A stretch of 64,000 bases of DNA from an uncultured Lentisphaeraceae bacterium (GCA_964482645.1 CAYZYQ010000001.1:31271-95270); one strand, 5' to 3'. Counted from the stretch's first letter, positions 4,737 through 58,870 are shown. Made by a program: numbers and translations. The notes: generated from the letters alone by a model not told the origin.

Positions 4737-4748
4737 GGTCGCCCTCCC

Positions 4749-9754: not shown

Positions 9755-9780
9755 GCGTACCACCGTCGTGGACGGACGGA

Positions 9781-40662: not shown

Positions 40663-42882
40663 ATGGCGGGCGGGGCGGTGAAAACGGATGCGCTTGAGAC
40701 GGTCGACGGAACCGTCAAGAGCGTTGTTTTTCGTAACGACGATACGGGGTTCACCGTCCTCCACGTGGTGACGGAGGAGGCGCGGTTTCGTTTGGGCGCA
40801 CGGGAGACGACGGTGCTGGGTACGTGCGCCGCCGTCTGGGAAGGTGAGGAACTCCACGCCGAGGGTGTTTGGGTGCAGGATCCCGTACGTGGGCGGCAGT
40901 TCAAAGCGAAGACGATTGCCTGCATACCGCCGAAATCGACGGAGGGGATTCGCCGTTATCTCGCCAGTGGATTGATTAAGGGCATCGGCCCCGTGTTGGC
41001 GAACCGCATTGTCGATACGTTTGGCGCGGACACGTTGGATGTCCTCGACCACCACTCGGGACGCCTCTCCGAAGTCAACAAGGTGGGGCCGCGCAAGATT
41101 GAGCAGATTCGGAAGTCCTGGCGTGACGCGCGGGGGATGCGCGAAGTGATGATTTTCACGCAGACCTACGGCATCTCGGTGGCGAAAACGACGAAGATTT
41201 ATCGGAAGTACGGACCTGATTCCATTGCCATCATCAAGGCCGATCCCTATCGTCTCTGTCGGGACATCTGGGGAATCGGTTTCGCAACGGCGGATCGCAT
41301 CGCCACGAGTGTCGGTCTGCCCATGGATTCACCCCTCCGTGCCCGCGCGGCAATTCTCCACACGTTGCGCGTCGAGGCCGAAGAGGCCGGGCATTGCTGG
41401 ACGTCCGAACCCGATCTGCTCCTGCACGCGCAGGAACTCGTCGGCATCTCCGTGGAAATCCTCTCCGCCGCCCTTGCGGTGGAGGTTGCCGAACGGCGCG
41501 TTGTCCGTGAAGACGACCGTCTCTATCTGTACGAACTCTATGCGGCCGAAAAGAGCGTGGCGGCGAGGATACGTCGTCTGCTCGCGACGCGCCCGGCTTT
41601 CGCGCCCATCGATCCCGACAAGGCGATTCCCTGGTGGGAAGGGCGGACGGGGTTCACGCTCGCGCCGGCGCAGATGCGGGCCGTGCGGACGACGTTGCGG
41701 TCGAAAGTCGCGATTGTCACGGGCGGTCCGGGCGTCGGCAAGACCACGATTATTCGGGCGCTTGTGGATATCTATCGCGCGCGCGGCGGCGTTCATGCGA
41801 TCAAGACGCTTTTGGCCGCGCCGACGGGCCGCGCCGCAAAGCGAATGTCGGAATCGACGGGCGCGGCGGCCCAGACGCTCCACCGACTGCTCAAATACAA
41901 TCCGCAGACGAATGAGTTTACGTTCAACGCGGAACGTCCGTTGCCGGGTGACGTGTTCATCTTCGACGAGATGTCGATGGTCGACATTCGCTTGATGCGT
42001 GATCTCATGGTCGCGTTGCCGGACGAAGCCACGCTCATTCTCGTGGGCGACACCGACCAGTTGCCGTCCGTCGGCCCCGGCAACGTTCTGCGCGACTTGA
42101 TTCGCAGTGGGGCGATTGCGACGTCGCAGTTGACGGAGATTTTTCGTCAGGACAGTTCGGGGTTGATTGTCCGCAACGCCCACCATGTCAACGCGGGCGA
42201 GGGGTTGGAGACGCGGAGCGGCGAGAGCGATTTCTATTTCGTCCCGCAGGAAGACCCGGAGAAAGCGCTTGCCGCCGCGCTCGATCTTATGACGGTACGT
42301 ATTCCGCGCCATTTCCATCTTGAGCCGTTGCAGGACGTGCAGGTACTCACGCCGATGCGGCGCAATTTGCTGGGGGCGGAAAACTTGAACACCGTCATTC
42401 AGCAACGATTGAACGGCACAGGACCGTCCATTCCGCGTGGTGGTACCGTGTTCCGTGCGGGCGATCGCGTGATGCAGTTGCGCAACAACTACGACAAGGA
42501 TGTCTACAACGGTGACGTTGGATTCGTGCAGAGCGTCGATTCGGGCAATCGGTCGCTCATCGTCCTCTTCGACGGGCGGCCTGTGGAATACGGCAGTGCG
42601 GACCTTGATGAGCTGACATTGGCCTACGCGACGACGATCCACAAGTCGCAGGGCAGCGAATATCCCGCCGTCATCGTCATTCTGCATCGCCAGCACTACA
42701 TGATGCTGCAACGCAATTTGCTCTACACCGCGATTACACGCGGCAAGAAGCTCGTCCTCGTTATCGGGTCGGGTTGGGCCGTCAAGAAAGCCATCGAGAC
42801 GAACACCGTCCGCGAACGGCGTACGTCCCTTGCCGACCGTTGTGCGGTCACACCGCCGGGCGGGCTTCCTGCGGAATCATGA
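40663..42882 (+). CDS. recD2: RecD2-like SF1B ATP-dependent DNA helicase
   Basis: N-terminal OB/HhH region (GIGPVLANRIV), Walker A GGPGVGKTT, VFIFDEMSMVD, C-terminal 2B/SH3 and motif VI (ATTIHKSQGSEYPAVI); 739 aa; last about 40 nt form repeat copy 1. Confidence 0.85.
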   Translation: MAGGAVKTDALETVDGTVKSVVFRNDDTGFTVLHVVTEEARFRLGARETTVLGTCAAVWEGEELHAEGVWVQDPVRGRQFKAKTIACIPPKSTEGIRRYLASGLIKGIGPVLANRIVDTFGADTLDVLDHHSGRLSEVNKVGPRKIEQIRKSWRDARGMREVMIFTQTYGISVAKTTKIYRKYGPDSIAIIKADPYRLCRDIWGIGFATADRIATSVGLPMDSPLRARAAILHTLRVEAEEAGHCWTSEPDLLLHAQELVGISVEILSAALAVEVAERRVVREDDRLYLYELYAAEKSVAARIRRLLATRPAFAPIDPDKAIPWWEGRTGFTLAPAQMRAVRTTLRSKVAIVTGGPGVGKTTIIRALVDIYRARGGVHAIKTLLAAPTGRAAKRMSESTGAAAQTLHRLLKYNPQTNEFTFNAERPLPGDVFIFDEMSMVDIRLMRDLMVALPDEATLILVGDTDQLPSVGPGNVLRDLIRSGAIATSQLTEIFRQDSSGLIVRNAHHVNAGEGLETRSGESDFYFVPQEDPEKALAAALDLMTVRIPRHFHLEPLQDVQVLTPMRRNLLGAENLNTVIQQRLNGTGPSIPRGGTVFRAGDRVMQLRNNYDKDVYNGDVGFVQSVDSGNRSLIVLFDGRPVEYGSADLDELTLAYATTIHKSQGSEYPAVIVILHRQHYMMLQRNLLYTAITRGKKLVLVIGSGWAVKKAIETNTVRERRTSLADRCAVTPPGGLPAES

Positions 42883-42890
42883 ACGCGAGA
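42859..42890. repeat. direct repeat copy 1 (core GGGCGGGCTTCCTGCGGAATCATGAACGCGAG) at recD2 3' end
   Basis: 32-nt core identical to 54352-54383 and with 1 mismatch to 57799-57830; flanks partially similar. Confidence 0.8.
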
Positions 42891-42926
42891 TGTCGATGTC
42901 CCGCGTGTAGTGTGATCCGGAACCAA

Positions 42927-43322
42927 CTATCGCGAACTCAATGACTCCGGTAACCAGATGTCTTCCCAGAAGAACGTCGGAAAGAAGTCGATTGTTTCGC
43001 TTGAATGCGAAACCGAGTTTCCCCAGATGCCGAGCGTGAAGCAGTCGGCAACCCCGTCGACAATGCGCACGGCGCACATGACGGCGCCGGGGACAATGCC
43101 GAAGACGCCTCCCAAAAAAGCGCCTGGCTCGGCGGCGGATTCATATCCCCTGCCGCCATAGTACGATATGTCCCTGACGATTTCGCCAGGACTTGTGACG
43201 ACGTTCACGAGTCCGCGGCCGACGCCGGTGGGCGGCGGCCATCCAAATTCATCCCCGTCCTCGCTGGCGGCAAGGCACGCCAGCGTCGTGCAGGCGCATA
43301 TCAGCATGCAAAGCTTTCTCAT
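42927..43322 (-). CDS. small secreted/lipoprotein, possibly exosortase-associated TIGR04073-like
   Basis: Signal peptide with LAC lipobox; GRGLVNVVTSPGEIVRDI segment resembles the conserved core of TIGR04073-family small proteins; last gene of the operon. Confidence 0.45.
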   Translation of the reverse strand: MRKLCMLICACTTLACLAASEDGDEFGWPPPTGVGRGLVNVVTSPGEIVRDISYYGGRGYESAAEPGAFLGGVFGIVPGAVMCAVRIVDGVADCFTLGIWGNSVSHSSETIDFFPTFFWEDIWLPESLSSR

Positions 43323-43337
43323 CTCATGTTTCTCCTG

Positions 43338-44165
43338 TTAGGCAAACTCGACCCGGGCCTTTCCAAGGCATTTGCCCTCGGTGGTACGAATCAGCGCCGT
43401 CTTGACCTTCGTGACTGTCATGGTGTTGTCCAGGGGGTGGGCGCCTAGGCCGTAAACAATGTGGAGGTCGGAATTGATTGGATCTCCAACGAGATCCCAA
43501 GTCACTTCGCAGCCTGCCGTCCGCCCGTCAAGCAGTTTTTTGAATTGCCGCCGAATGTCTGTCAGTTTCGCCTCGTCGTCGCGGAACAATGTGTAGAGTT
43601 CGACGTCAAACGCCTTGAAGCGGTTGGCGAACGCAATGTTGTTGTTCCTTGCAGAACTGACGGCTCCGATGAAAAGAGACACGATTCTCGTCGCGTCAAG
43701 GTTGCCACCCAGTTCCTTCCATATCGGCAGAACCTCAAGATGCAGGTCTTCGGGGATGAACGACGGCATCGGTTCGTTTTCGATTCTATAGCCCTTTCCT
43801 CGAAGCGCAGCGCATTCTATTGCCGTCTTCTTCAACTCGTTCTCAAGTTCGGCGATGCGCTCCCTGAGCCGATCCGCCTCTGAAGGCCTCGGCGGCTTCG
43901 CGTCGCGCTCTGCGAGTGAATGGTGTGAAATCCACTCCTGCCGGTTCCAGATTGCGCAGAGCTTTTGGAGACCGTCGGGCATGACTGCGCCTGGATGCTC
44001 TGAAAGGGTACGGGCGATGTCGGAGTCGGAGAGTCGCTTGTTGACGAAGCGCACCGCGAAGTCCTTGCCGATTTTTTCTTCAAGGGCGTCGGCGACGACG
44101 CACACCTGCCCGTCGTCGATCAGCCCTGTTTCGACAATGCGTGAAAGTACAGTGGTCAGGTTCAT
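43338..44165 (-). CDS. hypothetical protein (central coiled-coil)
   Basis: 275-aa ORF with lower-GC codon usage consistent with neighbours; 4-nt overlap with upstream gene; no recognisable motif. Confidence 0.5.
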   Translation of the reverse strand: MNLTTVLSRIVETGLIDDGQVCVVADALEEKIGKDFAVRFVNKRLSDSDIARTLSEHPGAVMPDGLQKLCAIWNRQEWISHHSLAERDAKPPRPSEADRLRERIAELENELKKTAIECAALRGKGYRIENEPMPSFIPEDLHLEVLPIWKELGGNLDATRIVSLFIGAVSSARNNNIAFANRFKAFDVELYTLFRDDEAKLTDIRRQFKKLLDGRTAGCEVTWDLVGDPINSDLHIVYGLGAHPLDNTMTVTKVKTALIRTTEGKCLGKARVEFA

Positions 44166-45286
44166 TCCGCATCAACCCCCGCATGAGACAGACATTTCGG
44201 TTCACCGTTTTTCGGCAGGCACATGACATACGCTGAACGGGCGTAGGTGATTCTTCTCGCGTTTTCGTTGCCCTCATGGATTTCCTTGTCGAAGTCATCG
44301 CCTTTTTTCGGCCAGCAAACCGAGATCGTGCAGTCGTCGCGCTTGCCGGCCATTTTGCTGTTCAGGTATCTTTCCACGCGTCTGCGGCATTCCTCCAATG
44401 TGTCTCCGCTGCCCATGGCCTTGGCGAAAGCATTGTCGAATGCCCTGAACCGTTCGACGAAGACATCCCTGTCAAGGGATCCCGTCAGAAGCCACATGAA
44501 GGAGTAGGCGCATTGAAGCCTGCGGCGTGAATCCTCGGAGTCGTCCGCATCCTCCCGATAGCCGAAGAGGTCGCACACATCCTTCGGCATTGCCTTTTCG
44601 ATTTCCAAACGCACTTTTTCAAGTTCGTCCTCGCACCCGGCCCTCACCTGCTCTATTTCCTCATTCTTCTCTTTGAGAGCCGATTCGTACTTCTGCCGAA
44701 TTTCCTCGATTTCGGCCTTATGCTCTGCCTCCATGGCGTTCTTTTCGGCTTCGCAGTTGCCCTGCTCCGTGGAAACTGTCTGCTCCATCGCCACCGCAAT
44801 GTCCATCTTGCGCTTTTCTTCCAGGCGGCATCTTTCATCGTCAAACGCCTTGCGCTCCGCCTCAAGCGTTTTCTTGGCCTCACACGCTTCCTCAAAGTCC
44901 TTCCGCGCCGATTCTTCAAGGCGCCTCTTGTCGCACTTCAACGCTTCGACCTCTTTATTCAGCGCTTCGACCTCTTCATTCAGATCGGCATTCTCCATGC
45001 GGTATCTTATTGTGTCGTCCAGAAGGAGGGAATAGGTCTTTTTATGCCGTTCAAGCTCCGTTTCAAGTTCGCGTTTCTTCTCATCGTTCAGTCTGTCGAC
45101 CTGTTCGTATCGGGCCTTGATTGCGTCCTTGATTGCATTCAGGCTGACGTTCAGGCTGGCGAGAACCTTGTTCGCGACTTTGTCGCATATGTTTTCGATC
45201 AGAATCTCGTCCGAAGAAGGTGGCTGGGAGGCCGTGGATGGAATCTCGGCGGCTTCGCTTTTGCTGGAAGTGTTTTCATCGGTCAT
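44162..45286 (-). CDS. coiled-coil protein, Glu/Lys-rich
   Basis: About 250 aa of heptad-like E/K/L-rich sequence (ELETELERHKK..., LNEEVEALNKEVEALK...) followed by globular Cys-containing C-terminal domain; 20-nt gap to upstream gene. Confidence 0.55.
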   Translation of the reverse strand: MTDENTSSKSEAAEIPSTASQPPSSDEILIENICDKVANKVLASLNVSLNAIKDAIKARYEQVDRLNDEKKRELETELERHKKTYSLLLDDTIRYRMENADLNEEVEALNKEVEALKCDKRRLEESARKDFEEACEAKKTLEAERKAFDDERCRLEEKRKMDIAVAMEQTVSTEQGNCEAEKNAMEAEHKAEIEEIRQKYESALKEKNEEIEQVRAGCEDELEKVRLEIEKAMPKDVCDLFGYREDADDSEDSRRRLQCAYSFMWLLTGSLDRDVFVERFRAFDNAFAKAMGSGDTLEECRRRVERYLNSKMAGKRDDCTISVCWPKKGDDFDKEIHEGNENARRITYARSAYVMCLPKNGEPKCLSHAGVDAE

Positions 45287-45306
45287 GTTCCGTCTCCTCT
45301 TTTTCT

Positions 45307-47691
45307 TCAGGCTATTTCAACGATGCGGTCCATCATGAACTCGCCGTCCATTGTGCAGACGCGGCACTCGACGTCTTCGGGATGCAGTTCCGTGGCGTCG
45401 CCTCTGAACGTGCCGGTTGCGGACACGACTCGCAGGGCGTTGTTCAGCGGATCGCTTTCAAGTCTCACCGAGACTCCGTCGCCGATTCCGCCATGTTTTT
45501 CGAGCGCTTCCGGTTTTATGCGGAGTTCGTACGACAGGATGGCTGTTTTCCCATATGGCGTCTTGCGCGCGAAAAGACGTCGCGGCGACGTCATCGGGAT
45601 GTCCTTCTGCAGTTCCCCGTCTCCGAATATCGGGCGCGTGAACGCGACGTGCTGCCCGTCGGGAACGATGCCCCACTTGAAGTCCGTGTTCACGACGTTG
45701 TTCGTGAACGACAGGTTCACGGATGCTTCGTTGCGCAGCGCATACAGCGCTCCGCCAAGCGCGGTCGAGATCTTCGAGTCGGTGATGCTCTTCGCGCCAT
45801 TGAAGAACTTGCCGCACCAGTCGCTGACGCGGTAGTCCTTCATGCTCCGGATTGCGGACGAGGGCAGGGCGATGCGTCTCTTGAACACGTTCTGCACTGC
45901 GGTGAACTCCATCGTCTTTCCGGAGAGGACGAGCATGTCGACGTCGTACGCGGCAATCAGATTCGCGAAGGAATGCGCGATGCTCCGAAATGTCTTCTCC
46001 GCGGTTGCACGGTAGGCGGAGACAATCTCCTGCGTAATGGCAATCTCGATTTCAAGGTCCTTGACTTTCTCAACGTCATCGATTTTCAGTTTTGCAATGC
46101 GGCACCAATCGGTGGCGTCGTCGTTCGAGAACTTGTGCCGGAAGACAGACAGGTCGTCATCGCGGATGTCGTCATTCGGATATCGCCGCAGAAGTTCGTC
46201 CAGTTTGATGGCGAGCGAAAGGGCAAGGTCGAACCAGAACGTCTTTGTCAGCGATCTGACGTGCGATCGCATTTCCGACGAATGGTAGTTCGCGCGAAGG
46301 TCTGCGTCCTTCGTTCCGAATTCATGCTCCAATTTCTGCGCAACGGCCTTGAACCCTGCCTTGGCAACGCAGTTCTCGATGAACGCGAAGATGAACGCAT
46401 CTCCGGCCGTGTTCACGCCATCGCGGCAGAAGAGGTCTATCGTGGCGCTGTACGGATCGACGCCGGCCGTTTCCTCCGATGCGGACACGGCGGATATCGA
46501 GAGATCGGACGTTCCGCCTCCGACGTCGATGACGGCAATCCTGGCCTCGCGTCCAATCGGAGACCTGCGGCCTATGGACTGGAGCCAGAAGAACGCACTC
46601 GGGTTTCTGCGGATTTCGTTGTAGGCGAAGAGAGAGAGCACGGACGTCGCCTCGTCGATGTCCGAGGTCAGCTCCACTTCCGTCTCGGGAAAATTCCGCA
46701 GATAGGCTCGCAGTCCATTCTGCAGCCGTTCGCGGTACAGTTCCAGCTCGCGCGGCAGAAGCGTGGAAGGATATGTGACGTGAATGCGGGAGATTCTGCG
46801 GCAGCGCGAGTCGCATGATTTTTTCTTGAACTCCGCCGAAGAGACGTAGTAGCACCCCTGTTCGTACAGTTCCGCCAGCATGGCGCCGAGCATGGCGGCG
46901 GGTGGAAGACGGTTCATGTCGATTCCGCAGTCCATTCCAAGTTCTGCCGCGATGATTCCGTTCAGATGTTCCACTTTCGGCTGCTCGGCGTCGACAGGCA
47001 TTCTTGAGGCGACCCATTCGCGTGACGAAGGATCGGCGTCCCAGAAATACCTTTTGGGGCTTGAAAGCGTATAGCGTCCCGCTCCTTCGCGACCTCTGAA
47101 CTGATAGTTGTTCCATTCCGCAAAGCGTCCGAGTCTGACAAACGACAGCCGTCCCTCGTTGTCGCAGAATTCACCGTCGGGGCGTGAATCCGCGTTCGTG
47201 AGCGACACCAGGCTTTTGAACGCGCCCTTCAGGGGACTCTCGCTTTTCCGCTGCTTGCACGCGATCGGCAATTCGTATACCGACGGGGCGCTTTCTCCAA
47301 GACCGTCGACGAGAAGAGCCACCGTGCGCGTGTTGCCAAGATCAATTGAGAGCATGCAGTCGACGACGTTGGACGGCGTCGCGATCTCATAACCCTCCCA
47401 GTCCTCGAAGTCGCCTAACTTTCTCCTGGCGTTTGGGTCTTTGCGGTCGCCGGGACGCGGCAGGGAAGGGCGCGCGTCGACCGTGAGGTACAGTATGTAC
47501 CTGGTCGTTTCCGTATCTCCGCCTACGGGTCTGCTCTTTTCCGTGGATGTCACGTACAGCAGACGATGGGGCACGACCCCTCCGTCCGATTCGGCTGCGA
47601 ACGCGCCCTGTTCCAGATTGTTAAACACGCTTTCCTCTAGATCAAGTTTCAGCGTGCAGACTTCGCCTTTGTAGATTGCAGATAATGCCAT
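45307..47691 (-). CDS. Hsp70/actin-fold ATPase-like protein (about 795 aa)
   Basis: Phosphate-1-like MLSIDLGNTRTVALLVDG and phosphate-2-like IAVIDVGGGTSDLSI motifs in the spacing expected for an Hsp70-type nucleotide-binding domain; start ambiguous (ATG 47691, or 47793/47838 overlapping upstream gene). Confidence 0.65.
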   Translation of the reverse strand: MALSAIYKGEVCTLKLDLEESVFNNLEQGAFAAESDGGVVPHRLLYVTSTEKSRPVGGDTETTRYILYLTVDARPSLPRPGDRKDPNARRKLGDFEDWEGYEIATPSNVVDCMLSIDLGNTRTVALLVDGLGESAPSVYELPIACKQRKSESPLKGAFKSLVSLTNADSRPDGEFCDNEGRLSFVRLGRFAEWNNYQFRGREGAGRYTLSSPKRYFWDADPSSREWVASRMPVDAEQPKVEHLNGIIAAELGMDCGIDMNRLPPAAMLGAMLAELYEQGCYYVSSAEFKKKSCDSRCRRISRIHVTYPSTLLPRELELYRERLQNGLRAYLRNFPETEVELTSDIDEATSVLSLFAYNEIRRNPSAFFWLQSIGRRSPIGREARIAVIDVGGGTSDLSISAVSASEETAGVDPYSATIDLFCRDGVNTAGDAFIFAFIENCVAKAGFKAVAQKLEHEFGTKDADLRANYHSSEMRSHVRSLTKTFWFDLALSLAIKLDELLRRYPNDDIRDDDLSVFRHKFSNDDATDWCRIAKLKIDDVEKVKDLEIEIAITQEIVSAYRATAEKTFRSIAHSFANLIAAYDVDMLVLSGKTMEFTAVQNVFKRRIALPSSAIRSMKDYRVSDWCGKFFNGAKSITDSKISTALGGALYALRNEASVNLSFTNNVVNTDFKWGIVPDGQHVAFTRPIFGDGELQKDIPMTSPRRLFARKTPYGKTAILSYELRIKPEALEKHGGIGDGVSVRLESDPLNNALRVVSATGTFRGDATELHPEDVECRVCTMDGEFMMDRIVEIA

Positions 47692-47716
47692 GAGGGTTTC
47701 CAGAGAATGTCCGTGT

Positions 47717-48193
47717 TTACTTTGAATCGCATTGGAACAGGCTTTCAAGGCGCATTCGCCAGGGCTTTGTCTGTCCCTGCCCAAGGACGGCATTTGCGTC
47801 CTTGATTGAACGGTGCGTATCGTCGGTCGACGTTTCACCGCGCATCACGCGCATGAAGAACCGCGCGAGATGATCGCGGATTTCCTTCTCCGATGCGTTC
47901 CAGTTGCAGAGTTCGTCGCTGAACGTCTGGAACTCATTCGATTCGCCATCGTCGCCGAGACAGCGGTCGCAGCGCTTCCGATAGAACGCCTGCCGTTCGG
48001 AAGACGGCCCGGCGGCCTTGATGAACTCCTTTAGGATTTCCGCAACGGCGTCCGTGTCCACGTACTGGTCTTCCAGGTCAAGGGCGATGAAATGGTCTCC
48101 AACCAGTTCCGTCTCGTCCCATATCAGCCGGAGATACGTCTCTTCCGTGGCTCCGGCCTTTTTTTCCCTCTCGAAATCTTCTCTAAGTCCCAT
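47717..48193 (-). CDS. hypothetical acidic protein
   Basis: 158-aa ORF tightly packed between tubulin-like and Hsp70-like genes; no recognisable motif. Confidence 0.5.
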   Translation of the reverse strand: MGLREDFEREKKAGATEETYLRLIWDETELVGDHFIALDLEDQYVDTDAVAEILKEFIKAAGPSSERQAFYRKRCDRCLGDDGESNEFQTFSDELCNWNASEKEIRDHLARFFMRVMRGETSTDDTHRSIKDANAVLGQGQTKPWRMRLESLFQCDSK

Positions 48194-48206
48194 TTCCCAT
48201 CTCCAA

Positions 48207-51164
48207 TCAGATTCCGTGGATATCCAGCGTGGACGTTATCGTCGCCTTTGCCGTATTGAGCTCCGCGATTTCCGCGTCCGTTATTGAAAAACGGAGGGCG
48301 TTGAAGATGTCTGTTTCGCAATTCAGCACGCTCGTGAACCTCGCCTTTGGATAGAACGATACGAAACCCTTCGGACTGCGGATCCACGCGAGAATCTTTC
48401 CCGTCCAGTCGACGGAAATAAAGTCGAACTGGCACGTGCCATCGAGATTGTCCACCACGCCCAGTTCGTGAAGCCTTGCGCCCGGGAGTCCAAACTTGTC
48501 TCCGTCCTTTGTGAACGTGAACTCGACTTTGGGCTTGTGCAGCAGGACGGTGGCGTCCGGATTCGCGGTGTTTTTCTTGTACGCCTTCCAGGACTCGTTG
48601 AGTCTGCACTCGATCGATTCCATGATGACGCCGAAACGGATCATTTCGGACAGCGTCATGGTCGTTCGCGACGACGGCGCCATGAGACCGGCCCTTATCC
48701 ACGCCTGTTTTACGGCGGGCATGGACGAATAGAGCCTTGAGAGCGTGTCGTGCGCCGTGAAGTCGATGCCGAGAGTCCCCATCCAGAGCCCCTGCACGTG
48801 TATAGGCGTCGCGTCCTTCTTCCTGCCCTTGAACAGCGGCGACGCGGCGGTTTCCTCGTCCTTCCACATGTTCGGGTTCATGATGCCCGATGAATGGTTT
48901 ACGGACAGGAAGGAATCTGCCGAGTTTGCCGTGTTCGGCATGGTCTTCAGACCGAGGACGTCGCAGACGTCGCCATTCGTCATCTTGAAGCCAGGCGGCG
49001 TTCCGCCCTGCTTGATTACGTAGTGGTAGTGGAACGTCTGGGAGTCCGGCGCCGCGAATTCCGGCGCATTCGTCCTGCAGCCGATTGAGTTCTTTGCCAC
49101 GGAGAAGTCCTGAAGCGTTGCACCCGAAAGAGGGTTGGCGCCCGGCTCCAGCTGGTCTGCAAGTTCGATGAACTTGTTGAAGACGCTTTCCTCCGCAAGC
49201 TCCAGGATGGCGTCCGCCGTATGGTCGTAATTGAGGAGTAGTTCGGCGGAGTCGTCGCGTGCGTTCATGTCCTTCACGGTCTGCACGTTCAGTCTCTTGT
49301 CGTTGACGCACTTGCGGTACACGATCGACATCACGATGCGGAATGGATCGAATGCGAGCTGTTTGCGCTTCTCGTCCGGGAGCGGGGCAAGCGGTTCCAC
49401 GAGAAGACCGTCTATGATGTGCGGATTCGTTCCGCCGCGCAGCTCCTTGCACTGTCTGTGCAGTTTCGCCTTCAGTTCGTCGCACTCTTTCCTGAAGTCG
49501 GAGAGTTCGCGCGAAAAGGCGCCTGTGTCGATGAACGACGTGCGCGCGCAGCGGCAGGCGCAGATGTAGAAGCCGAGCAGTTCGCGGAAGCGCTTGTCAA
49601 ACGCATCCACCACTTCCCTGAAGACTTCGTCCTCTTTCGAGAGGCCGAACACCCAGTCGCGTACGACGCGATTCTGCTTCCGCGTCGAGGCCAGCGCGAT
49701 CGCATTGTCCAGCGACTTGACCATCTCGGCCGCATACTGGGAGACGTTTGCCTTAAGCCCCTGGATCTTGTCATGAAGTTCTTTGTATCCCTGGGCGATG
49801 AGTTCCACGTTGACGTCGCCGTTCCAGTCTGCATACTTCGAACAGGCGAGGAGGAGCATGAGTTCCTTGGCGGGGACGACCCTGTACTCCGGAACGCCGT
49901 CTTTCACCGCGTCAAGCAGTTGCCTGAAGGAGTTCCTGAATTCTCCAAGGGACCTCTCGTTGATGGCGCCGCGTTCTTCCGCCTGGAGCAGCGCTTTCAG
50001 CGGAATGCACTGCGCGGGATCGACGCCGGCAAGGGCTTTCCTGTATTCGGGCAGCTGGGCGTCGATGAACACGCTTTTGACGTTCTCCAGGATTGCGGGG
50101 GCAGCTCCGCTTCCGTTCAGAAATCCCGTCCGCCCGTCCTTGCCGTCAAGGACGGCGATGAGGCTCTTGTAGAACCAGTTCTTCAGCGAGACCATCCGTC
50201 CGCTTTTCATCACGAACATGTTGAATGCGGAAAAACACGGATCCTCCTTGTCCACGTGGTACGCGGGGCCTGACTGCCCCGCGATCAGCCTGTCCACCCA
50301 GCGCGGATGGAATTCCTCCACGTGGAGGTACGTGGCGGCGAAGAGCTGTTCGGCCAGGAGCGACGTCACAAGCGGCCGGCGTCCATGCGGCGTGGGAAGC
50401 ACGTAGAGGTTGCCCATGGGCAGGGATGAACCCGAAATGCCGCGGTCTGCAAGCACGTGTCCGTCGGGCTTCGCGCCGGTGAACAGCGGAAACGCTTGGT
50501 CTTCCTTCTGCACCCACACGGGGACTTTGAAGCCGGGGCGTTCCGATTCCAGCCGTCGCCGCCAGCTTGCCGTCTGGAGGTCCTTGAACATCGAGATCAT
50601 GTTCAGCGCGATTGGATAGTTGCCCTCTCCGGGAATCGCCTCCGGCATCAGGAGAAAGCCCAGCACCACCACGTTCTTGAAGTCGGGGTTTGCGTTTCTC
50701 TTCCGCAGAATCTGCAGGTCGAGGAAATCGCATATGTTCAGGAACAGGCCTCCGGACGTTCCACCGAACGCAGAGCCCACCACGACGATCTGGTCGTCCG
50801 GTTCTAGCGGGAATTCGTTCTCGATTTCAGCCCAGGTCTTTCTGATGAACTCGGCCGCCTTGCCGGAGACAGAACGGTCGCCGCCGACACCGCCCGCAGG
50901 AACGGTCTTGGCCGTCCATGACGGCTGGAAGCTCTTTTCCACGTCTCCGTCGTCGTCCGATATCTTCAGCACGTAGCCCTTCACGCGCGACGTGTGCAGG
51001 CGCGTCCCAAGGGCGTTGAAGGCGTCGATCTCCGACGGCATCGAGTCGATCGCCACGTAGCGGTCGTCGAACCTTCCAAACAGATTCTCCTCGCACAGGC
51101 GTTTGATGAGCGCCATTACGCCTTTCAACGACTCGCTTCCGGATGCAATGAAAATTCTCTTCAT
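48207..51164 (-). CDS. tubulin/FtsZ-like GTPase domain protein with about 700-aa helical C-terminal extension
   Basis: N-terminus RIFIASGSESLKGVMALIKRL...VAIDSMPSEIDAF resembles the FtsZ/tubulin N-terminal strand-loop-helix and DxxAL; VVVGSAFGGTSGGLFLNICDFL resembles the T4 GGGTGSG loop; 985 aa. Confidence 0.6.
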   Translation of the reverse strand: MKRIFIASGSESLKGVMALIKRLCEENLFGRFDDRYVAIDSMPSEIDAFNALGTRLHTSRVKGYVLKISDDDGDVEKSFQPSWTAKTVPAGGVGGDRSVSGKAAEFIRKTWAEIENEFPLEPDDQIVVVGSAFGGTSGGLFLNICDFLDLQILRKRNANPDFKNVVVLGFLLMPEAIPGEGNYPIALNMISMFKDLQTASWRRRLESERPGFKVPVWVQKEDQAFPLFTGAKPDGHVLADRGISGSSLPMGNLYVLPTPHGRRPLVTSLLAEQLFAATYLHVEEFHPRWVDRLIAGQSGPAYHVDKEDPCFSAFNMFVMKSGRMVSLKNWFYKSLIAVLDGKDGRTGFLNGSGAAPAILENVKSVFIDAQLPEYRKALAGVDPAQCIPLKALLQAEERGAINERSLGEFRNSFRQLLDAVKDGVPEYRVVPAKELMLLLACSKYADWNGDVNVELIAQGYKELHDKIQGLKANVSQYAAEMVKSLDNAIALASTRKQNRVVRDWVFGLSKEDEVFREVVDAFDKRFRELLGFYICACRCARTSFIDTGAFSRELSDFRKECDELKAKLHRQCKELRGGTNPHIIDGLLVEPLAPLPDEKRKQLAFDPFRIVMSIVYRKCVNDKRLNVQTVKDMNARDDSAELLLNYDHTADAILELAEESVFNKFIELADQLEPGANPLSGATLQDFSVAKNSIGCRTNAPEFAAPDSQTFHYHYVIKQGGTPPGFKMTNGDVCDVLGLKTMPNTANSADSFLSVNHSSGIMNPNMWKDEETAASPLFKGRKKDATPIHVQGLWMGTLGIDFTAHDTLSRLYSSMPAVKQAWIRAGLMAPSSRTTMTLSEMIRFGVIMESIECRLNESWKAYKKNTANPDATVLLHKPKVEFTFTKDGDKFGLPGARLHELGVVDNLDGTCQFDFISVDWTGKILAWIRSPKGFVSFYPKARFTSVLNCETDIFNALRFSITDAEIAELNTAKATITSTLDIHGI

Positions 51165-51189
51165 GGTGTTTCCTTTCTGCGTCTGCGCC

Positions 51190-51783
51190 CTACAGTCTTG
51201 TCGTCTGCCGCTTCATCTTGAAGCCCGGCCAGAAGAACCATGCCAGCACGACCATGTCCAGAAGTGTCGGAATGATTGGGTGTATGTAGCCGTAGTGCCT
51301 GTAGAAGAATGCGGTCGTCCTGTACGCCGGCCGCTTGCTTGCGTCGGCGTGGTCTTTCGCGTCGCCCTTGTTCTGCGCGGCGCGACTGTTCTGGCACTTC
51401 TCGCTGATGGCCTTGATGTTCCAGAAGTCGTTCTTCGCGTTCGCGTCATATCCCGGCATCGACGCCCTGTAGTCCGTCGCGAACGACGTGATCCCGCTTA
51501 TTTCGGTCACCAGCACGGAGTGCGCGACGAAATAGATGCACGCCATGGCGACGAGGCTGGCCCAGAAGCACTTGCACCATGCCTCCCCGGCCGTGCGCCA
51601 GGCGCCTTTTGCCTCTTGATTGAATCGGTTTCGGAAAAAGCGCACAAGGCCGAAGACCAGGCCGACGGGAAGGGCGATGAAGAAAAAGGCGTCCCAGGCG
51701 AGAAGCGCCAGGCTCGTCGGCAGAAGGCTTTTCAGCATCGTCAGCCATCCTTCGACGGACAGCGAATTCAGAGTTTCGATCAT
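51190..51783 (-). CDS. integral membrane protein (about 4 TM)
   Basis: Hydrophobic helices LLPTSLALLAWDAFFFIALPVGLVFGLV, CFWASLVAMACIYFVAHSVLV, IIPTLLDMVVLAWFFW; 14-nt gap to neighbours. Confidence 0.55.
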   Translation of the reverse strand: MIETLNSLSVEGWLTMLKSLLPTSLALLAWDAFFFIALPVGLVFGLVRFFRNRFNQEAKGAWRTAGEAWCKCFWASLVAMACIYFVAHSVLVTEISGITSFATDYRASMPGYDANAKNDFWNIKAISEKCQNSRAAQNKGDAKDHADASKRPAYRTTAFFYRHYGYIHPIIPTLLDMVVLAWFFWPGFKMKRQTTRL

Positions 51784-51797
51784 TTCCGTTCTCCTTG

Positions 51798-54176
51798 TTA
51801 GACTGCCCGTCGGAACTCGATTTGTCCGACAGGCTCCATTGCCACTTTGTTTTCAAACAGCAGGTAGATCCCCTCGTCGAAGACGACCGTGTTCTCCCCG
51901 ACGGTCTTCTTGTCCGTGCCTGCAATGGGCATCAGTTGGACGTCCTTGCCGGGGGCGCGCAGTTCAAATTCGACCGCCTCCGTCTCCCCCTTGCGGCAGA
52001 TGACGACGAGGTCGACCGGACAGCCGCATTTCCCGTCCAGTCGCACGGCGCGGTTGAGCCTGACGTCAAGCACGACTTGCGTATCGGACTCCTTGTTTGA
52101 ACGGTAGAGGATCTGCGCGGCAGTTCTGCCGCGAACGAGCTTGGCGACAACCACGCCCGTACCTGCGACAAGAGCCGGCAGCAGCACGAACGGAAGAACG
52201 TTGCCTCCGCCATTCGGCGTTCCGCCTTCGACCGGGATGGGCACTCGCTTCCACTCTTCGAGTTCGGCCTTGGCCGTTGCCAGCTCGTTGTCGTTTACGG
52301 CCGCCTCCACTTTTTTCCGTAGCGATTCAAGTTCGGCGCGGTTCTGGATGACGTCGTCGCCATTTGCCGAATTGTCCAGGCGCCAGACTCGCCTGTTCAG
52401 GAGTTCATCTTTCTTTCCTTGAAGTGCGGCCTCCTTGACGCGCCGTTTTTCTTCATCGTCCTTAAACTTTTCGGCCTCTTGATCGGCTTCGACCTGTTTA
52501 GGTGTCTTTGTGGCTGACTTCGTGGCGGGTTTCCATACATTGAATGCGTTCACCGCCTCGTCGAGGGAATCTTTGTCTTTTGCGGCTTTTATCCTCTGCA
52601 GAATCGTAGAGAGGTCTTCGTGATTGAAGATTTGATCCTCGGAATATACGGCCAGTTGTCTCTCCACAATACTAATGGCATTCGTACGCAATTCTTCAAA
52701 CCTGCGGCGGGCTATTTCCGCCTCTATCTCCTTGTTCCTCCGCGCCATGCTTTCCTCCAGTGTAGAAAGGCGTCCCGCCAGTTTTTCAAGCTCGGAGATG
52801 AACAAGGCGATGTCCTTCGTCGACAGCCTTGGGTCGTTGTCGATGAAGCCCGTGCACTTTGCAAGTTGATTGGAGATGTCGTTACAGTCGGAAGCAAAGG
52901 CGCTTCTGTCGCTCGCCGGCATTTTGGAAAGGCGTTCTACGGTGGAGTGCACTTTGATGGCGATGCCCTTCTTCTTTTCCTTGAGTTCGCGCAGGCATTC
53001 AAGGCGCGTGTTCTCTTCGGTCACGGATGCGACGAGTTCTGCGATGGAATCCAGTTTTACCTTGATATACGGCTTGTCAGGTGCAGCGGCAAGGTCGGCG
53101 AGCTGTTTCACGGCGTCGCCTTTCTGCCCTTCCTTCCGCGCCTTTGCGAGGGCGTTTGTGACATCGGAGAAGAGACGTTCTCTGTCGCGAAGACATCCGT
53201 AGTCGAACAGACTCGAATCCCATGTGCGCGTATACGTGATTCCGGCGGGCGAGACAATTGACGCCACCAGTTCATTCTGTCCGAGAACGGGCGTCAGGTT
53301 CGTCGAGTCTTCGTCAAGCGAAATAGACTGCCCATTGTGCCTTATGGTCGTCGTCCATGTTTCCCTTCTTGGCAGTCGGCTTGTTCGCCTTACGGCGATA
53401 TGCGTGTCTTCTGGATTGCAGACAAGCGCCTCCAGACCGGCTTTCTCCGTTTCCGAAAGCGCGTAGTAATGGTCGACGATGGCGTTGGCGACGTCGTTGG
53501 CGTTCGTGTCCAGGGCGACGCGAAGGAAATCTCGCCATTTTTCATGCGACCAGTATGGCTTGAAGATGCCCGCGTTCACTGATTCTGCTGGCGCGTGAAG
53601 CATGAAAAACATGATGTCGTGTTCTTCGTCGAGATGAAACGCGCCATGTCGCGTAGTCAGGTCCGGGTCGTTGGAAATGATGCAGACGACGACATTTCGG
53701 GCAGATTTTTCGTTGTCGAGCACCTGCTTCACGAGGATGTCCCGTCCCCACTCCTCGTCCTCTTTCCCGAATGCGCCGAAATCGGAACGGCTGGCTTTCC
53801 TTGAAAGCGAAAATGGCATGACGATGCCGGGTTTCAGCAGATATGCCGTCCCCGTGTTCACTTCGACGTAGTTTCCGAAGCCGCGCCGGCGCAGCCCTGC
53901 TTCAATCGGATTGTCACGATCGGCCAGAAGCGACCGCAATGCGTTGATGGCACGGACATAGGCGTGGGACGTTCCGTAGTCCATGTTCGCGTCCTTGTTG
54001 CGCTTGTGTCCGTCCACGTAGAAATGCACACTGACATCCCGTCGCCCGTCCAGCGACATGTTTCTCTCTATGGGCGGTACCGCCATGTCGTTCAATGCGG
54101 CCGCGCAAGTCCATGCCGCAAGCAAAATCGCGACTATGCCATATGATTTAAACATAAATTCTCTTCCTTCGCACAA
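51798..54176 (-). CDS. secreted/membrane-anchored protein: signal peptide, about 300-aa ectodomain (possible degenerate vWA), long coiled-coil, single TM, about 110-aa C-terminal domain
   Basis: Signal peptide MFKSYGIVAILLAAWTCAAA; ectodomain with DVSVHFYVDG...NVVVCIISNDPDL; about 250 aa Lys/Glu-rich coiled-coil; TM VLPFVLLPALVAGTGVVVAKLV; first gene of operon. Confidence 0.6.
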   Translation of the reverse strand: MCEGREFMFKSYGIVAILLAAWTCAAALNDMAVPPIERNMSLDGRRDVSVHFYVDGHKRNKDANMDYGTSHAYVRAINALRSLLADRDNPIEAGLRRRGFGNYVEVNTGTAYLLKPGIVMPFSLSRKASRSDFGAFGKEDEEWGRDILVKQVLDNEKSARNVVVCIISNDPDLTTRHGAFHLDEEHDIMFFMLHAPAESVNAGIFKPYWSHEKWRDFLRVALDTNANDVANAIVDHYYALSETEKAGLEALVCNPEDTHIAVRRTSRLPRRETWTTTIRHNGQSISLDEDSTNLTPVLGQNELVASIVSPAGITYTRTWDSSLFDYGCLRDRERLFSDVTNALAKARKEGQKGDAVKQLADLAAAPDKPYIKVKLDSIAELVASVTEENTRLECLRELKEKKKGIAIKVHSTVERLSKMPASDRSAFASDCNDISNQLAKCTGFIDNDPRLSTKDIALFISELEKLAGRLSTLEESMARRNKEIEAEIARRRFEELRTNAISIVERQLAVYSEDQIFNHEDLSTILQRIKAAKDKDSLDEAVNAFNVWKPATKSATKTPKQVEADQEAEKFKDDEEKRRVKEAALQGKKDELLNRRVWRLDNSANGDDVIQNRAELESLRKKVEAAVNDNELATAKAELEEWKRVPIPVEGGTPNGGGNVLPFVLLPALVAGTGVVVAKLVRGRTAAQILYRSNKESDTQVVLDVRLNRAVRLDGKCGCPVDLVVICRKGETEAVEFELRAPGKDVQLMPIAGTDKKTVGENTVVFDEGIYLLFENKVAMEPVGQIEFRRAV

Positions 54177-54212
54177 GATGTCGTTGAATGAAAACGCGCA
54201 TATTTTACAATA

Positions 54213-54231
54213 CCCCCCCCCCCCCCCCCCC
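54213..54231. repeat. homopolymeric C19 (G19 on coding strand) tract 37-55 nt upstream of operon start codon
   Basis: 19 consecutive C residues read directly; sits between island operon start (54176) and repeat copy 2. Confidence 0.9.
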
Positions 54232-54338
54232 TGTCAACTGCAAGTTTTGGAATTGTCATTTGTCAGAGTGAATGTACCTATGGCAGTCGCATCTATTCTG
54301 GCAAGCGACCTACAAATGTACGTGTAAAGGCGTTGTGC

Positions 54339-54383
54339 ACTCACGCCACGGGGCGGGCTTCCTGCGGAATCATGAACGCGAGG
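54339..54383. repeat. direct repeat copy 2
   Basis: CACTCACGCCACGGGGCGGGCTTCCTGCGGAATCATGAACGCGAG; 41/41 identical to 57786-57826. Confidence 0.85.
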
Positions 54384-54418
54384 TGACGGGCGACGAATTG
54401 ACTGCGACGAGCTTTTGG

Positions 54419-55684: not shown

Positions 55685-55931
55685 GCCTCCGAAACTCCAC
55701 GCGGCGAAAGCAACACCTCCCCTACGGCATCTGCTCGCCGGCGATTTCTTCGAGGGTGTGTATCGGACGCGCTCCGCGTTCCCGCAGCCGAATTTTCACT
55801 TGGCGCAAAGCGAAAACAGCGACGTCGCCCTTTGTTTACAGGGGTTCGGCGATTCTCTTGCCCGAAAAATTGGGGAATCTCCAAAGGTGATGATAGTACG
55901 CTGCACCAGTCACTCCCATAATATTGCCGAA

Positions 55932-56591: not shown

Positions 56592-57785
56592 TGCCTCTAC
56601 TCCTTTTTTAGTTAAACAATGTCACTACCATGCAATAGTGATGGTGTGATGTGAGTAAAAAAGTCGTTGCCTTCAGGTCGCTTTCCCGTGTACCATACAC
56701 GGTGTCATGAAAGAACCCTGAAAGCAACGACGAAGAGAATGATACCAATTCTGGCGCAGATAGTCCAACATACTTGCCAGGATACAAAATCGAGGAACTC
56801 GCGGCCGAAGAGAAAATCAAGGCCAGGGAGTTTTCCTGCTCCGCGCAGGTGTACCTGTTGATGCTCGGCCAGCTTGCGCATGTCTTCTCTTTGAATGAAC
56901 TCGTCGACCCCTCGACGATATTCTCCGGGGAGCTCCGCCACATACGCGGCATCGAGGCCGTGAAGCTCACGACGTTCTCCCACGCCAACAGGACGCGGGC
57001 GAATGGCAGATATGGGCGGCGATGCTGACGCATCTTGTCCTGTACTACATCAAATGGAAGAACAAGGTGGTTTCCTCGTATACGCGGTTCGCGGCGATGA
57101 TCAAGAACACCATCTGGTTGAAGCGCCCTCTTGAGGCGGGGATCAATTTATATTGCAGAACACCTGGCCAAAGCAGCCCTCCGCCAGACCGCAGCATGCC
57201 GTATTTGCCGGGGTTTGAGCGGCTTGCCATTGGATAGCACCCGGCGACAATTGCAACGACAACGGCGTCTATCGCATGACATAAACACACTCACATTGAA
57301 AATCGCCTTGCGAAACTGTCGCTTTGGGCCGAAAAACCACCTAATACGCTATCCGTTCGCATAGTTTTGGAACCCTGTTGTATGGTATTGGAGATGCGAG
57401 GTCGTTCCACAATTCCCTCGAACTCCGGGACTCCAGAACTTCCGCAACGAAAGCAACAAACTTCCGCGCCCGCATGATGCAACCCGGCGCGACAGGGACG
57501 TCGCGCCCTACTGGATGGGCAGACGCCCCGCCATGCGGTAGCCGAACAGACGTTCCGCCATTCGGCAGGGCGTGCAGATGTTTCGCCATTCGGTAGGGCG
57601 GGGCGTCCCGCCCCGCCGTTGACGTGCGCGACGGGGAACTTGCCGACGATGCGGCCGGCCTTGACGAAGAATCTTCAGCTCATGGTCGTCGCGCTGGAAT
57701 GTTTCGTCCGCAAAAAAAAAGGGGATCCTCCAAAACATGTGCATCTTCCCAAAGCCAATGCGCCCGAAATCCGGAATAGCTGTAC

Positions 57786-57830
57786 ACTCACGCCACGGGG
57801 CGGGCTTCCTGCGGAATCATGAACGCAAGG
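57786..57830. repeat. direct repeat copy 3 (forms the 3' end of antiporter gene)
   Basis: CACTCACGCCACGGGGCGGGCTTCCTGCGGAATCATGAACGCAAG. Confidence 0.85.
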
Positions 57831-58807
57831 TAGGCGAGGAAGAGAAGAATCCAGAGGGCGCCTTCCAGACGGTTGATCGTACCGTCCTTCTTGGGATTGC
57901 GGAAGTTGAGGCCGAAGACGGCGATGAGAATCGAGAAGAACGTCATGACGGGCAAGTCGCGCGTCAGGATGTAGCCGGAAAATCCGCTGAACGGCGAAAT
58001 CGATCCGGCAACGCCCACGACGACGAGCGCGTTGAAGAAGTTCGAGCCGACGATGTTGCCGACGACGAACTCGTTTTCGCCTCTCCGTGCCGAGGCGATT
58101 GACGACGCCAGTTCCGGCAGGGACGTGCCGGCCGCCACGATGGTCAGGCCGATGAGGAGTTCGCTCACGTGCAGAACGTCGCGCGCGAAGTCCACGCATC
58201 CCCACACCATGACGTGGGACGAAAGGACGAGGATTGCCAACCCGAGAACGAGGCGCGTCCATTCGCGAATGCCGCTGAACGGCACGGTAGGCGTTGGCGC
58301 GGCGACGGGTTCGGCTGCGGTGAGGGGCTTAGCCTCCCGTTGGTCGTACCAGCAGTAGATGGGCATCAGAACCGCGAACGCCACAAGCAGGCCAAGGGCG
58401 TTGAAACGGTCGAACGAGCCGTCTCGCACGGCCCACCAGGAAAGGACGGACGTGATGAGCAACAGGGGGACGGCAAACCAGTTGACCGACGACTTCACCT
58501 TGATGGGCCAGAAGAGGGCCGTCACGCCGAGGATGATGCCGATGTTGAAAATGTTGCTGCCGTAGGCATTGCCCAGCGACAAGTCGGCATGGCCGCTCGC
58601 GCTTGCAATGGCCGAGACGGCCATTTCTGGCGCACTCGTGCCGAAGCCGATGATGACCATGCCGACAATGAGCGGCGAAAGGCCGAAATGACGAGCAAGG
58701 ACGCTGGCCGCGTCCACGAACACGTCCGCACTCTTTGCGAGGACGAAAAGACCACCGATGATGAAGATGAGTGACAGGATGAGGGGGATGTCTGTACTGA
58801 TACTCAT
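57788..58807 (-). CDS. Ca2+/Na+ antiporter (CaCA/YrbG family)
   Basis: Duplicated alpha-repeat motifs GTSAPEMAVS and GTSLPELASS; about 10 TM; AAGGAG RBS before ATG 58807. Confidence 0.85.
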   Translation of the reverse strand: MSISTDIPLILSLIFIIGGLFVLAKSADVFVDAASVLARHFGLSPLIVGMVIIGFGTSAPEMAVSAIASASGHADLSLGNAYGSNIFNIGIILGVTALFWPIKVKSSVNWFAVPLLLITSVLSWWAVRDGSFDRFNALGLLVAFAVLMPIYCWYDQREAKPLTAAEPVAAPTPTVPFSGIREWTRLVLGLAILVLSSHVMVWGCVDFARDVLHVSELLIGLTIVAAGTSLPELASSIASARRGENEFVVGNIVGSNFFNALVVVGVAGSISPFSGFSGYILTRDLPVMTFFSILIAVFGLNFRNPKKDGTINRLEGALWILLFLAYLAFMIPQEARPVA

Positions 58808-58870
58808 GTTTGTACCTTCTCCTTCGTTTGGTTTTCTTGTGAAAGGGGCGGCTCGTCCGAATGACAAGCT

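Follow-up and report, generated by a model that had tools for sequence, protein, structure and literature searches.

The window analysed here, a stretch of 64,000 nucleotides (nt) from an uncultured Lentisphaeraceae bacterium (GCA_964482645.1 CAYZYQ010000001.1:31271-95270), contains a block of eight minus-strand genes, named g8 (the first) to g1 (the last), which pairs a tubulin/FtsZ-superfamily GTPase (g6) with an ATPase of the SrfB family (g4). The remaining genes encode an envelope protein (g8), a small integral membrane protein (g7), two proteins with coiled coils (g3 and g2) and two further small proteins (g5 and g1). The block is a real conserved system, and the combination of SrfB with a tubulin homologue has not yet been described as such. 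Confidence is high in the descriptive part of this finding, namely the conserved operon, the fold assignments and the obligate tubulin-like/SrfB pairing. A role in conflict or defence is proposed here more tentatively.

The tubulin-like GTPase and the SrfB-family ATPase

The predicted structure of g6 confirmed a fold of the tubulin/FtsZ superfamily. The AlphaFold2 model, made from an alignment of 22 sequences, had a predicted local distance difference test (pLDDT) of 86 and a predicted TM-score (pTM) of 0.79, and its top 50 Foldseek matches in the PDB were all CetZ, eukaryotic or Odinarchaeota (OdinTubulin) tubulin, gamma-tubulin or TubZ, with a probability of 1.00, a best E value of 8.5e-5 and a target-normalised TM-score of 0.47 (TubZ was found at rank 38). 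The model consists of a GTPase domain (residues ~1-340), a helical middle region (356-700), in which four helices are 20-34 residues long, and, at 714-985, a mixed alpha/beta domain.

At the sequence level, g6 matched the Pfam family Tubulin_2 (PF13809) with an E value of 4.1e-5 and 23.4 bits, under the gathering score of 27, and the same family, and no other, was matched by 20 of 22 g6 relatives (E <= 0.01, best 1.2e-9). In Pfam, Tubulin_2 models the FtsZ-like proteins (FtsZl1) that Makarova and Koonin described (PMC9871819; PMC2875224), and g6 behaves as a very divergent member of this Tubulin_2/FtsZl1 type. A sequence search of the PDB with the g6 profile gave nothing relevant, and a profile of the g6 clade did not retrieve the general Tubulin_2 family. 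An earlier note on this DNA had assigned the protein to tubulin/FtsZ and had guessed at kinship with the FtsZl-1 family; the assignment survives both the profile search, through Tubulin_2 in the relatives, and the structure comparison, and the guess appears to be right.

The T4 loop of g6 reads GSAFGGTSGG. Four glycines, G9 (in T1), G95, G134 and G139, do not vary across 27 sequences, down to 13% identity, and G92, R97, G135 and N188 hardly do; these glycine loops speak for a functional nucleotide pocket. Behind the putative H7 helix lies a WVDR motif (289-292), the R292 of which is invariant in the close family. An island variant in another assembly (L015, SRR17244081; positions 3205-6474) is 179 nt shorter, and in it the tubulin-like gene and the gene for the 158-amino-acid (aa) protein are fused into a 1089-aa open reading frame (ORF).

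The sequence of g4 makes it a clear member of the SrfB family, with an Hsp70 fold. It matched SrfB (PF07520) with an E value of 4.1e-39 (134.8 bits; cut-off 27.1), and the same family was present in all 97 g4 homologues. The motifs IDLGNTRT (phosphate-1), VIDVGGGTSD (phosphate-2) and LSGKT (adenosine) vary little or not at all among 29 relatives. In hhalign, a profile of the g4 relatives aligned with residues 108-211 of the nucleotide-binding domain of Escherichia coli DnaK at a probability of 92.6% and E 4.6e-7, across the DnaK motifs ITVPAYF, NEPTAAA and DLGGGTFD, and the weak PDB sequence matches of g4 (10 of 10) were DnaK or mitochondrial Hsp70, MreB and FtsA. The Hsp70-like assignment of the earlier note survives these profile tests, but the named family had been overlooked, the SrfB of the SrfABC operon.

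Conservation and distribution

Relatives of g6 are very rare and patchy. Word-indexed searches gave 29 relatives, one of them from Kiritimatiellae, and an exhaustive hidden Markov model search of 1.84 billion representatives gave 65 clusters of the g6 clade, 56 of them at E <= 1e-10. A scan with the g6 alignment found four loci in JGI metagenomes and no relatives in GTDB species genomes or IMG/VR viral contigs. The distinct loci number 11: the window and L001, L003, L005, L006, L007, L008, L072, L073, L074 and L082.

The genes, which had been taken for a linked unit, are linked in every related locus, and the tubulin-like gene and SrfB co-occur throughout: in all 21 loci with sufficient downstream sequence (11 distinct), the tubulin-like gene is followed within 0-1 kb by a same-strand SrfB gene. 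The order is a bitopic protein with an ectodomain and a transmembrane segment, a small protein with several transmembrane segments, the tubulin-like protein, SrfB and coiled-coil proteins, the last of which follow SrfB in all loci. Where the upstream side was examined, the tubulin-like gene is preceded by genes for a small protein with 3-4 transmembrane segments and for a large signal-peptide protein whose transmembrane segment lies ~110-130 residues from the C-terminus, and a protein with the topology of g7 occupies the same position in L006, L007, L072, L073 and L074. This order and the membrane topologies are kept down to ~15% g6 identity, where g8 can no longer be recognised by sequence; the distant g8 counterparts carry PKD beta-sandwich repeats (Pfam). 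Identity of the window to L001, L008 and L005 is 57, 45 and 43% for g6, 48, 38 and 41% for g4, and 37, 27 and 26% for g8, and in this comparison the two NTPases, g6 and g4, are the most conserved products, with g8, g5, g3 and g2 the most divergent.

Three of the related loci have additional genes. In L072, a second Tubulin_2-type gene (937 aa), found from 21923-23027 on and leaving the locus, lies ~9 kb downstream of the first pair and may belong to a tandem second system. A Macro-domain gene (9520-10047) is inserted directly after SrfB in L008, and a downstream 612-aa coiled-coil protein of L001 (13561-15399) matches the PADLOC candidate PDC-M26A (E 3.6e-33).

Tubulin-type and SrfC-type loci

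A scan of GTDB species genomes with an SrfB profile gave at least 56 loci, mostly in Proteobacteria and some in Bacteroidota and Planctomycetota. In this set together with the classic Skermanella locus L009, SrfC (PF10139) adjoins SrfB in 52 among the matches listed and a tubulin-like gene in none, the latter being confined to the set of 11 loci. A phmmer search with SrfC likewise found no tubulin-type locus among the 52 SrfC-bearing loci, and no protein of the operon matched Virul_Fac (PF10139, SrfC) or, in NCBIfam, SrfA. Walker A was present in 38 of 45 SrfC sequences and in none of the eight operon proteins, none of which matched a P-loop (TRAFAC) GTPase in Pfam or NCBIfam. In a neighbour-joining tree of 67 SrfB sequences (no bootstrap), the 11 tubulin-linked sequences form an exclusive clade.

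Gene position points the same way. In the planctomycete loci L039, L041 and L056, SrfC is found upstream of SrfB, where g6 lies in the present operon, and in L056 a bitopic membrane protein precedes SrfC, a layout like that of the tubulin-type operon and the reverse of the classic srfA-B-C order. From the mutual exclusivity of the tubulin-like gene and SrfC, together with this position, a non-homologous displacement is inferred, by which the tubulin-like GTPase appears to fill the role of SrfC beside SrfB and a membrane anchor. We read the operon as a bridge between the FtsZl1-centred and the SrfBC systems.

Two closer relationships were considered and rejected. The g6 protein is not a tubulin domain fused to a SrfC-like body, as the hhalign probability was 0.2% and g6 and SrfC are not homologous, and the planctomycete SrfC-type loci share no accessory proteins with the tubulin-type loci, there being no BLAST similarity between them.

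Envelope and accessory proteins

The g8 protein has a signal peptide and a transmembrane segment at 653-671 or 655-675. Its model (pLDDT 75.5) shows an alpha/beta domain (~30-243), a beta-sandwich (244-321) and a helical stalk of ~300 residues, followed by the transmembrane helix and a cytoplasmic beta-sandwich (678-783). Segment analysis and model verified the succession of signal peptide, ectodomain, helical stalk and transmembrane segment that had been described for this protein. With Foldseek, the best fold match of the ectodomain was ANTXR2, a receptor with von Willebrand factor A (vWA) and Ig domains (E 5.2e-4, probability 0.75), and the alpha/beta domain is possibly vWA-like. Pfam VWA was not matched by any operon protein, and homology of the g8 ectodomain to the vWA proteins linked to Srf loci was rejected (hhalign probability 0.5%). 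The other membrane protein, g7, was verified as having several transmembrane segments (3-4), with two or three hydrophobic segments near the N-terminus and one near the C-terminus.

No signal peptides or transmembrane segments were found in g6, g5, g4, g3 or g2. The last two are paralogous, having a common C-terminal domain of ~100 aa (BLASTP E 2e-5), and such paralogues number 2 to 4 per operon. In Pfam, g2 gave coiled-coil-type noise only, and it has homologues in L001, L005, L007 and L008; the library matches of g3 were of coiled-coil types only (SMC/JetC/DivIC). For g5, no family was matched in Pfam, PADLOC, NCBIfam or PHROGs, and it was rejected as a J-domain protein by inspection of its sequence, in which the HPD motif is absent. 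It is 28-33% identical to its counterparts in L001, L005 and L008, and the slot that it occupies between the tubulin-like gene and SrfB encodes 142-172 aa in near relatives; in two distant loci the length is ~300 aa, and L072 has no gene there. The g1 protein has hydrophobic segments at 1-19 and 70-88 and weakly resembles the exosortase-associated TIGR04073 (E 8.4e-7, under the cut-off); it is 70% identical in L001 and also kept in L005 and L008.

Gene layout and insertion site

All eight minus-strand ORFs named in the earlier note are present at the coordinates that it gave (Table 1), apart from the start of g8, which was moved from 54176 to 54155. They are co-directional and tightly packed over 42927-54155, with gaps between successive genes of 14, 25, 13, 25, 20, -4 (an overlap) and 15 nt, and because the gaps are short or negative the block looks like a single transcription unit. 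The ATG at 54155 is preferred over the TTG at 54176 as the start of g8, giving a 785-aa product (MFKSYGIVAILLAAW...) with GGAAGAG upstream, and an identical product is present in public gene calls. The ATG start of g4 at 47691 fits its homologues of ~790 aa. A lower guanine-plus-cytosine (GC) content had also been ascribed to the block, correctly: it is 0.570 across 42896-54330 against 0.622 in the remainder of the window, and below that of all 63 sliding 11.4-kb intervals upstream (minimum 0.610).

Table 1. Positions of the operon genes and surrounding features, counted from the first nucleotide of the window.
Feature	Position	Strand	Description
Repeat copy 1	42838..42895	+	Direct repeat; covers the last 15 codons and stop of recD2 (40663-42882); left edge of island 1
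g1	42927..43322	-	131 aa; last operon gene; signal-like N-terminus and second hydrophobic segment
g2	43338..44165	-	275 aa; short coiled coil and C-terminal domain also in g3
g3	44162..45286	-	374-aa coiled-coil protein; 4-nt overlap with g2
g4	45307..47691	-	794-aa SrfB-family ATPase; Hsp70/actin (ASKHA) fold
g5	47717..48193	-	158 aa; acidic, soluble; no recognisable domain
g6	48207..51164	-	985-aa tubulin/FtsZ-superfamily GTPase, putative Tubulin_2/FtsZl1 type
g7	51190..51783	-	197-aa integral membrane protein; 3-4 transmembrane segments
g8	51798..54155	-	785-aa bitopic envelope protein
Upstream element	54207..54237	-	Coding strand TTGACA-G19-TATTGTAAAAT; ~55 nt before the g8 start codon
Repeat copy 2	54331..54388	+	Direct repeat; right edge of island 1, left edge of island 2
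Island 2	54389-57777		ORFs 54419-55684, 55932-56591 and 56608-57033, all minus strand; GC 0.546
Repeat copy 3	57778..57835	+	Direct repeat; right edge of island 2; overlaps the Na/Ca-exchanger gene at its 3' end
Na/Ca-exchanger gene	57788-58867	-	Convergent; borders the islands

The block lies at a repeat-bounded insertion site, as had been supposed. The repeat is a 58-nt unit with a 29-nt exact core, and no matches are expected from shuffled sequence. The repetition of the recD2 3' end that the earlier note saw around the block is real and beyond chance, but there are three copies and two tandem islands, not two copies. The three copies point to two insertions in tandem, of 11.4 kb (island 1, with the eight genes) and 3.4 kb (island 2). 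The identity of RecD2 is backed by its domains. Within a 90%-identity cluster (P0202, P0206, P0207), the RecD2 tails diverge exactly within the repeat core (42838-42886 in the window): the tail here ends in ...GGL/PAES and the stop, and those of close relatives read ...GGL/VNCNPSGAGNPRTVLVGRDRT and ...GGL/LAKSCARGRHHH.... Divergence inside the core suggests that in other strains other DNA is joined at that point and that the 3' end of recD2 is an insertion hotspot. Contigs of 11.4 kb, equal to the island, result from repeated k-mers, and a circular form was rejected as their source.

The 421-aa ORF of island 2 was rejected as an integrase: it matches PADLOC REase_III at positions 505-895 of 898 (E 8.7e-38) and represents a type III restriction enzyme reduced to its C-terminal half. 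Neither the helicase half nor a Mod gene is nearby, and the fragment is therefore probably a remnant. Island 2 further encodes a SIMPL/DUF541 protein and a 141-aa ORF without assignment. A tRNA-Ser gene (anticodon TGA; 58871-58958, minus strand) lies just past the Na/Ca-exchanger gene and is not itself the insertion site. Beside related operons, mobile-element genes were found in L003 (phage-type integrase), L005 (IS66 transposase) and L006 (DDE transposase).

Comparison with described systems

The operon is absent from the defence systems catalogued in PADLOC, and no paper linking SrfB with a tubulin homologue was found in the searchable literature, the coverage of which is incomplete; to this extent the failure of the earlier note to match it to a named system stands. 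The combination is not without any precedent. Kaur et al. (2020) described tubulin homologues, HSP70-family proteins and vWA and membrane proteins in predicted conflict systems (PMC7159879), where the tubulin and HSP70 themes are non-overlapping, tied to DO-GTPases and found mainly in Firmicutes and Actinobacteria; GAP1-N2 systems were reported in Planctomycetes and Verrucomicrobiae among other phyla (PMC7159879). A locus of M. magneticum, amb2957-2961, encodes vWA, FtsZl1, vWA, vWA and Hsp70-like proteins in that order (Makarova and Koonin supplement, PMC2875224), and is the sole listed precedent found for FtsZl1 with an Hsp70-like protein. Given these published themes and the named SrfB family, the operon is new as a variant.

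The likeness to FtsZl1 operons, which were proposed to remodel membranes (Makarova and Koonin 2010, PMC2875224), consists of a ~1000-aa protein in which a divergent N-terminal GTPase domain, with a loop of the GGGTG(S/T)G type, is continued by a long stretch of helices and a C-terminus unlike that of FtsZ, of a sporadic occurrence alongside the normal division apparatus and of membrane-protein partners in the operon. However, the present operon has no clear vWA protein (MIDAS absent), P-loop GTPase, protein kinase or OmpA-family protein; its partner is SrfB, and the C-terminal domain of g6 is mixed alpha/beta and not mostly helical.

With the DO-GTPase/GAP1-N2 systems (PMC7159879), the operon shares a mobile, membrane-proximal character and the use of tubulin or HSP70-family proteins with transmembrane components and variable partners. 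Extracellular vWA or beta-sandwich-repeat proteins also occur in those systems, to which the PKD repeats of the distant g8 counterparts are an analogy only. The defining DO-GTPase is absent here, and no protein of the window has an FNIII domain (Pfam). The HSP70 of the DO-GTPase systems is canonical and accompanied by GrpE and DnaJ, whereas here the protein is SrfB and always accompanied by a tubulin homologue.

SrfABC loci of Salmonella, Xenorhabdus and many Proteobacteria resemble the operon in encoding, beside SrfB (~800-1000 aa), another large NTPase and a membrane protein that is bitopic, and often have vWA and membrane-transport genes nearby; the vWA genes beside srfABC have been noted (bioRxiv 10.64898/2026.09.18.752743). 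In the present operon, however, a tubulin-like GTPase not homologous to SrfC (P-loop Virul_Fac) takes its place, the SrfB clade is separate, and SrfA, a Lol-like ABC transporter and FGE-sulfatase genes are missing. SrfA is bitopic and places a kinase-like domain (N-terminal) in the cytoplasm and a lipocalin (C-terminal) in the periplasm, and the layout of g8 is the opposite, with a signal peptide, a large part outside and ~110 aa inside. Lastly, TubZ/PhuZ and CetZ give the best structural matches to the N-terminal domain of g6, but are single-function filament formers of ~330-420 aa without the 650-residue C-terminal extension, have TubR/centromere or no partners, and bear no sequence-level relationship to g6.

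Proposed role and alternatives

Here it is proposed that the operon encodes an envelope-anchored, nucleoside triphosphate (NTP)-driven assembly with a role in conflict or defence. This whole statement, defence included, comes from the architecture of the operon and is given a probability of about 0.4; among the possible biological purposes, conflict or defence against phage or another invader is the most likely. It is favoured because of the island context, the rarity of the clade and the fast-evolving ectodomain and accessory parts, and because of the parallel with the "GTPase-centric" systems that contain tubulin, HSP70 and vWA proteins (PMC7159879). The restriction-enzyme fragment next door, the mobile elements of L003, L005 and L006, the Macro-domain gene of L008 and the PDC-M26A match of L001 are also counted in its favour.

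In the proposed mechanism, the ectodomain of g8 would bind an extracytoplasmic ligand or sense envelope damage, and the signal would pass the membrane to the cytoplasmic domain of g8 and to g7, which together would recruit g6 and nucleate its GTP-dependent assembly. The SrfB ATPase, with ATP, would load, remodel, recycle or disassemble the g6 assembly, with the coiled-coil paralogues g3 and g2 as putative adaptors or scaffold, and the output at the inner membrane would be containment, permeabilisation via g7, or remodelling. In a more specific form, an envelope-spanning cytomotive machine of an undescribed class, the tubulin GTPase and SrfB would co-assemble on the transmembrane receptor and would themselves be the effector, for example if they wall off the membrane at the site of the invader or rupture it there. 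This form is considered unlikely; if it is true, the replacement of SrfC by a tubulin homologue would reveal what the SrfABC and FtsZl1 systems do.

Several observations weigh against the proposed conflict role. Every step of the mechanism is read from architecture, and nothing that the operon encodes can be recognised as a toxic effector, be it a nuclease, protease, NADase or known pore former. No system model of PADLOC-DB 2.0.0 was matched, the only hits being coiled-coil noise (JetC, ZorA) and, for g4, a weak motif-level match to PDC-M61B (E 0.002); no PHROGs phage family matched the operon proteins, and no copy was found on viral contigs. The WVDR motif is not conserved in the wide g6 alignment, which leaves a conserved T7 catalytic residue, and therefore a polymerisation-activated GTPase activity, putative. 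The vWA-like reading of g8 comes from one Foldseek match, and the position of the metal ion-dependent adhesion site (MIDAS) reads D48-G-H50-K-R52, with no MIDAS motif. By sequence, SrfB alone is common to tubulin-type and SrfC-type loci. No integrase is encoded in island 1 or island 2, and the empty insertion site was not recovered: the Logan contigs all end at the repeat, where short-read contigs break, and an exact-pattern scan of JGI metagenomes found neither the empty site nor alternative junctions. Since both integrase and empty site were missing, the mobility of the operon, including its horizontal acquisition, is inferred.

The alternative that survives best, although somewhat unlikely, is that the operon serves as accessory machinery to remodel membranes, form vesicles or assemble a surface structure. 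The tubulin-like polymer, SrfB and the coiled-coil proteins would then be a cytoskeletal scaffold, attached to the membrane, which shapes or buds the envelope or positions a structure in it and senses no invader. Bacteria of the PVC (Planctomycetes, Verrucomicrobia and Chlamydiae) group have elaborate envelopes, which is counted in its favour. Only structural and NTPase parts are encoded, with nothing recognisable as a toxic effector, and the stalked, envelope-spanning g8, the g7 protein with its several transmembrane segments and the exosortase-associated-like g1 would suit such a machine, as would the length-variable poly-G tract upstream (see below), which is typical of phase-variable surface loci. 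Remodelling also agrees with the hypotheses put forward for FtsZl1 (PMC2875224) and, as outer-membrane vesicles, for SrfABC (bioRxiv 10.64898/2026.09.18.752743). However, a rare, patchy, island-borne clade near mobile-element genes fits core cell biology poorly, no genes for cargo or for glycan or polymer synthesis are linked, and the neighbouring island holds the remnant of a restriction enzyme.

An SrfABC-like tripartite toxin, exported against eukaryotic or bacterial cells, is improbable. A SrfB homologue is present, and SrfABC of Xenorhabdus stockiae was reported to be cytotoxic and insecticidal (PMC6950479), but the toxin reading of SrfABC has itself been questioned, with export in outer-membrane vesicles argued (bioRxiv 10.64898/2026.09.18.752743). 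Moreover, SrfA and SrfC are absent, which leaves SrfB alone in common with the classic loci, no secretion-system genes are linked, and the products from g6 to g2 are without signal peptides or transmembrane segments.

Plasmid and phage tubulins (TubZ, PhuZ) and the actin-like ParM segregate DNA, and with TubZ among the fold matches of g6 and the block on an island, a TubZ/ParM-style segregation or maintenance module of a mobile element was considered, in which the two NTPases would form cytomotive filaments to partition that element; it is very improbable, as genes for replication, centromere binding or a DNA-binding adaptor are missing from the chromosomal island, membrane or secreted proteins make up three of the eight products, g6 appears to be of the FtsZl1 type and not TubZ, SrfB is nearer to Hsp70 than to ParM, and no copy was found on viral contigs in the IMG/VR scan.

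SrfABC, which has been described since 2000 and is widespread in Proteobacteria, and FtsZl1, described in 2010, are common orphan systems without an established mechanism. In one clade of SrfB, the place that SrfC takes beside other SrfB proteins belongs to an obligate tubulin-like partner, which raises the hypothesis that SrfC and FtsZl1-type GTPases do equivalent work, and that SrfB would be the Hsp70-fold ATPase dedicated to both at a membrane receptor. The operon, a compact 11.4-kb cassette of eight genes with good structure models, would be one of the few in bacteria to encode tubulin-fold and actin/Hsp70-fold NTPases that always occur together.

The upstream G tract

Upstream of g8, hexamers resembling TTGACA and TATTGT flank a poly-C run at 54213-54231, which reads G19 on the operon strand. 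The length of the tract varies by assembly, being 19 here, 20 in L015, 21 in L011 and L012 (G15-T-G5) and 22 in L010, and the tract is absent from related loci. The differences in length may be homopolymer sequencing errors, or the tract may act as a phase-variable promoter; every TTGACA/TATTGT spacer observed is longer than the sigma-70 optimum.

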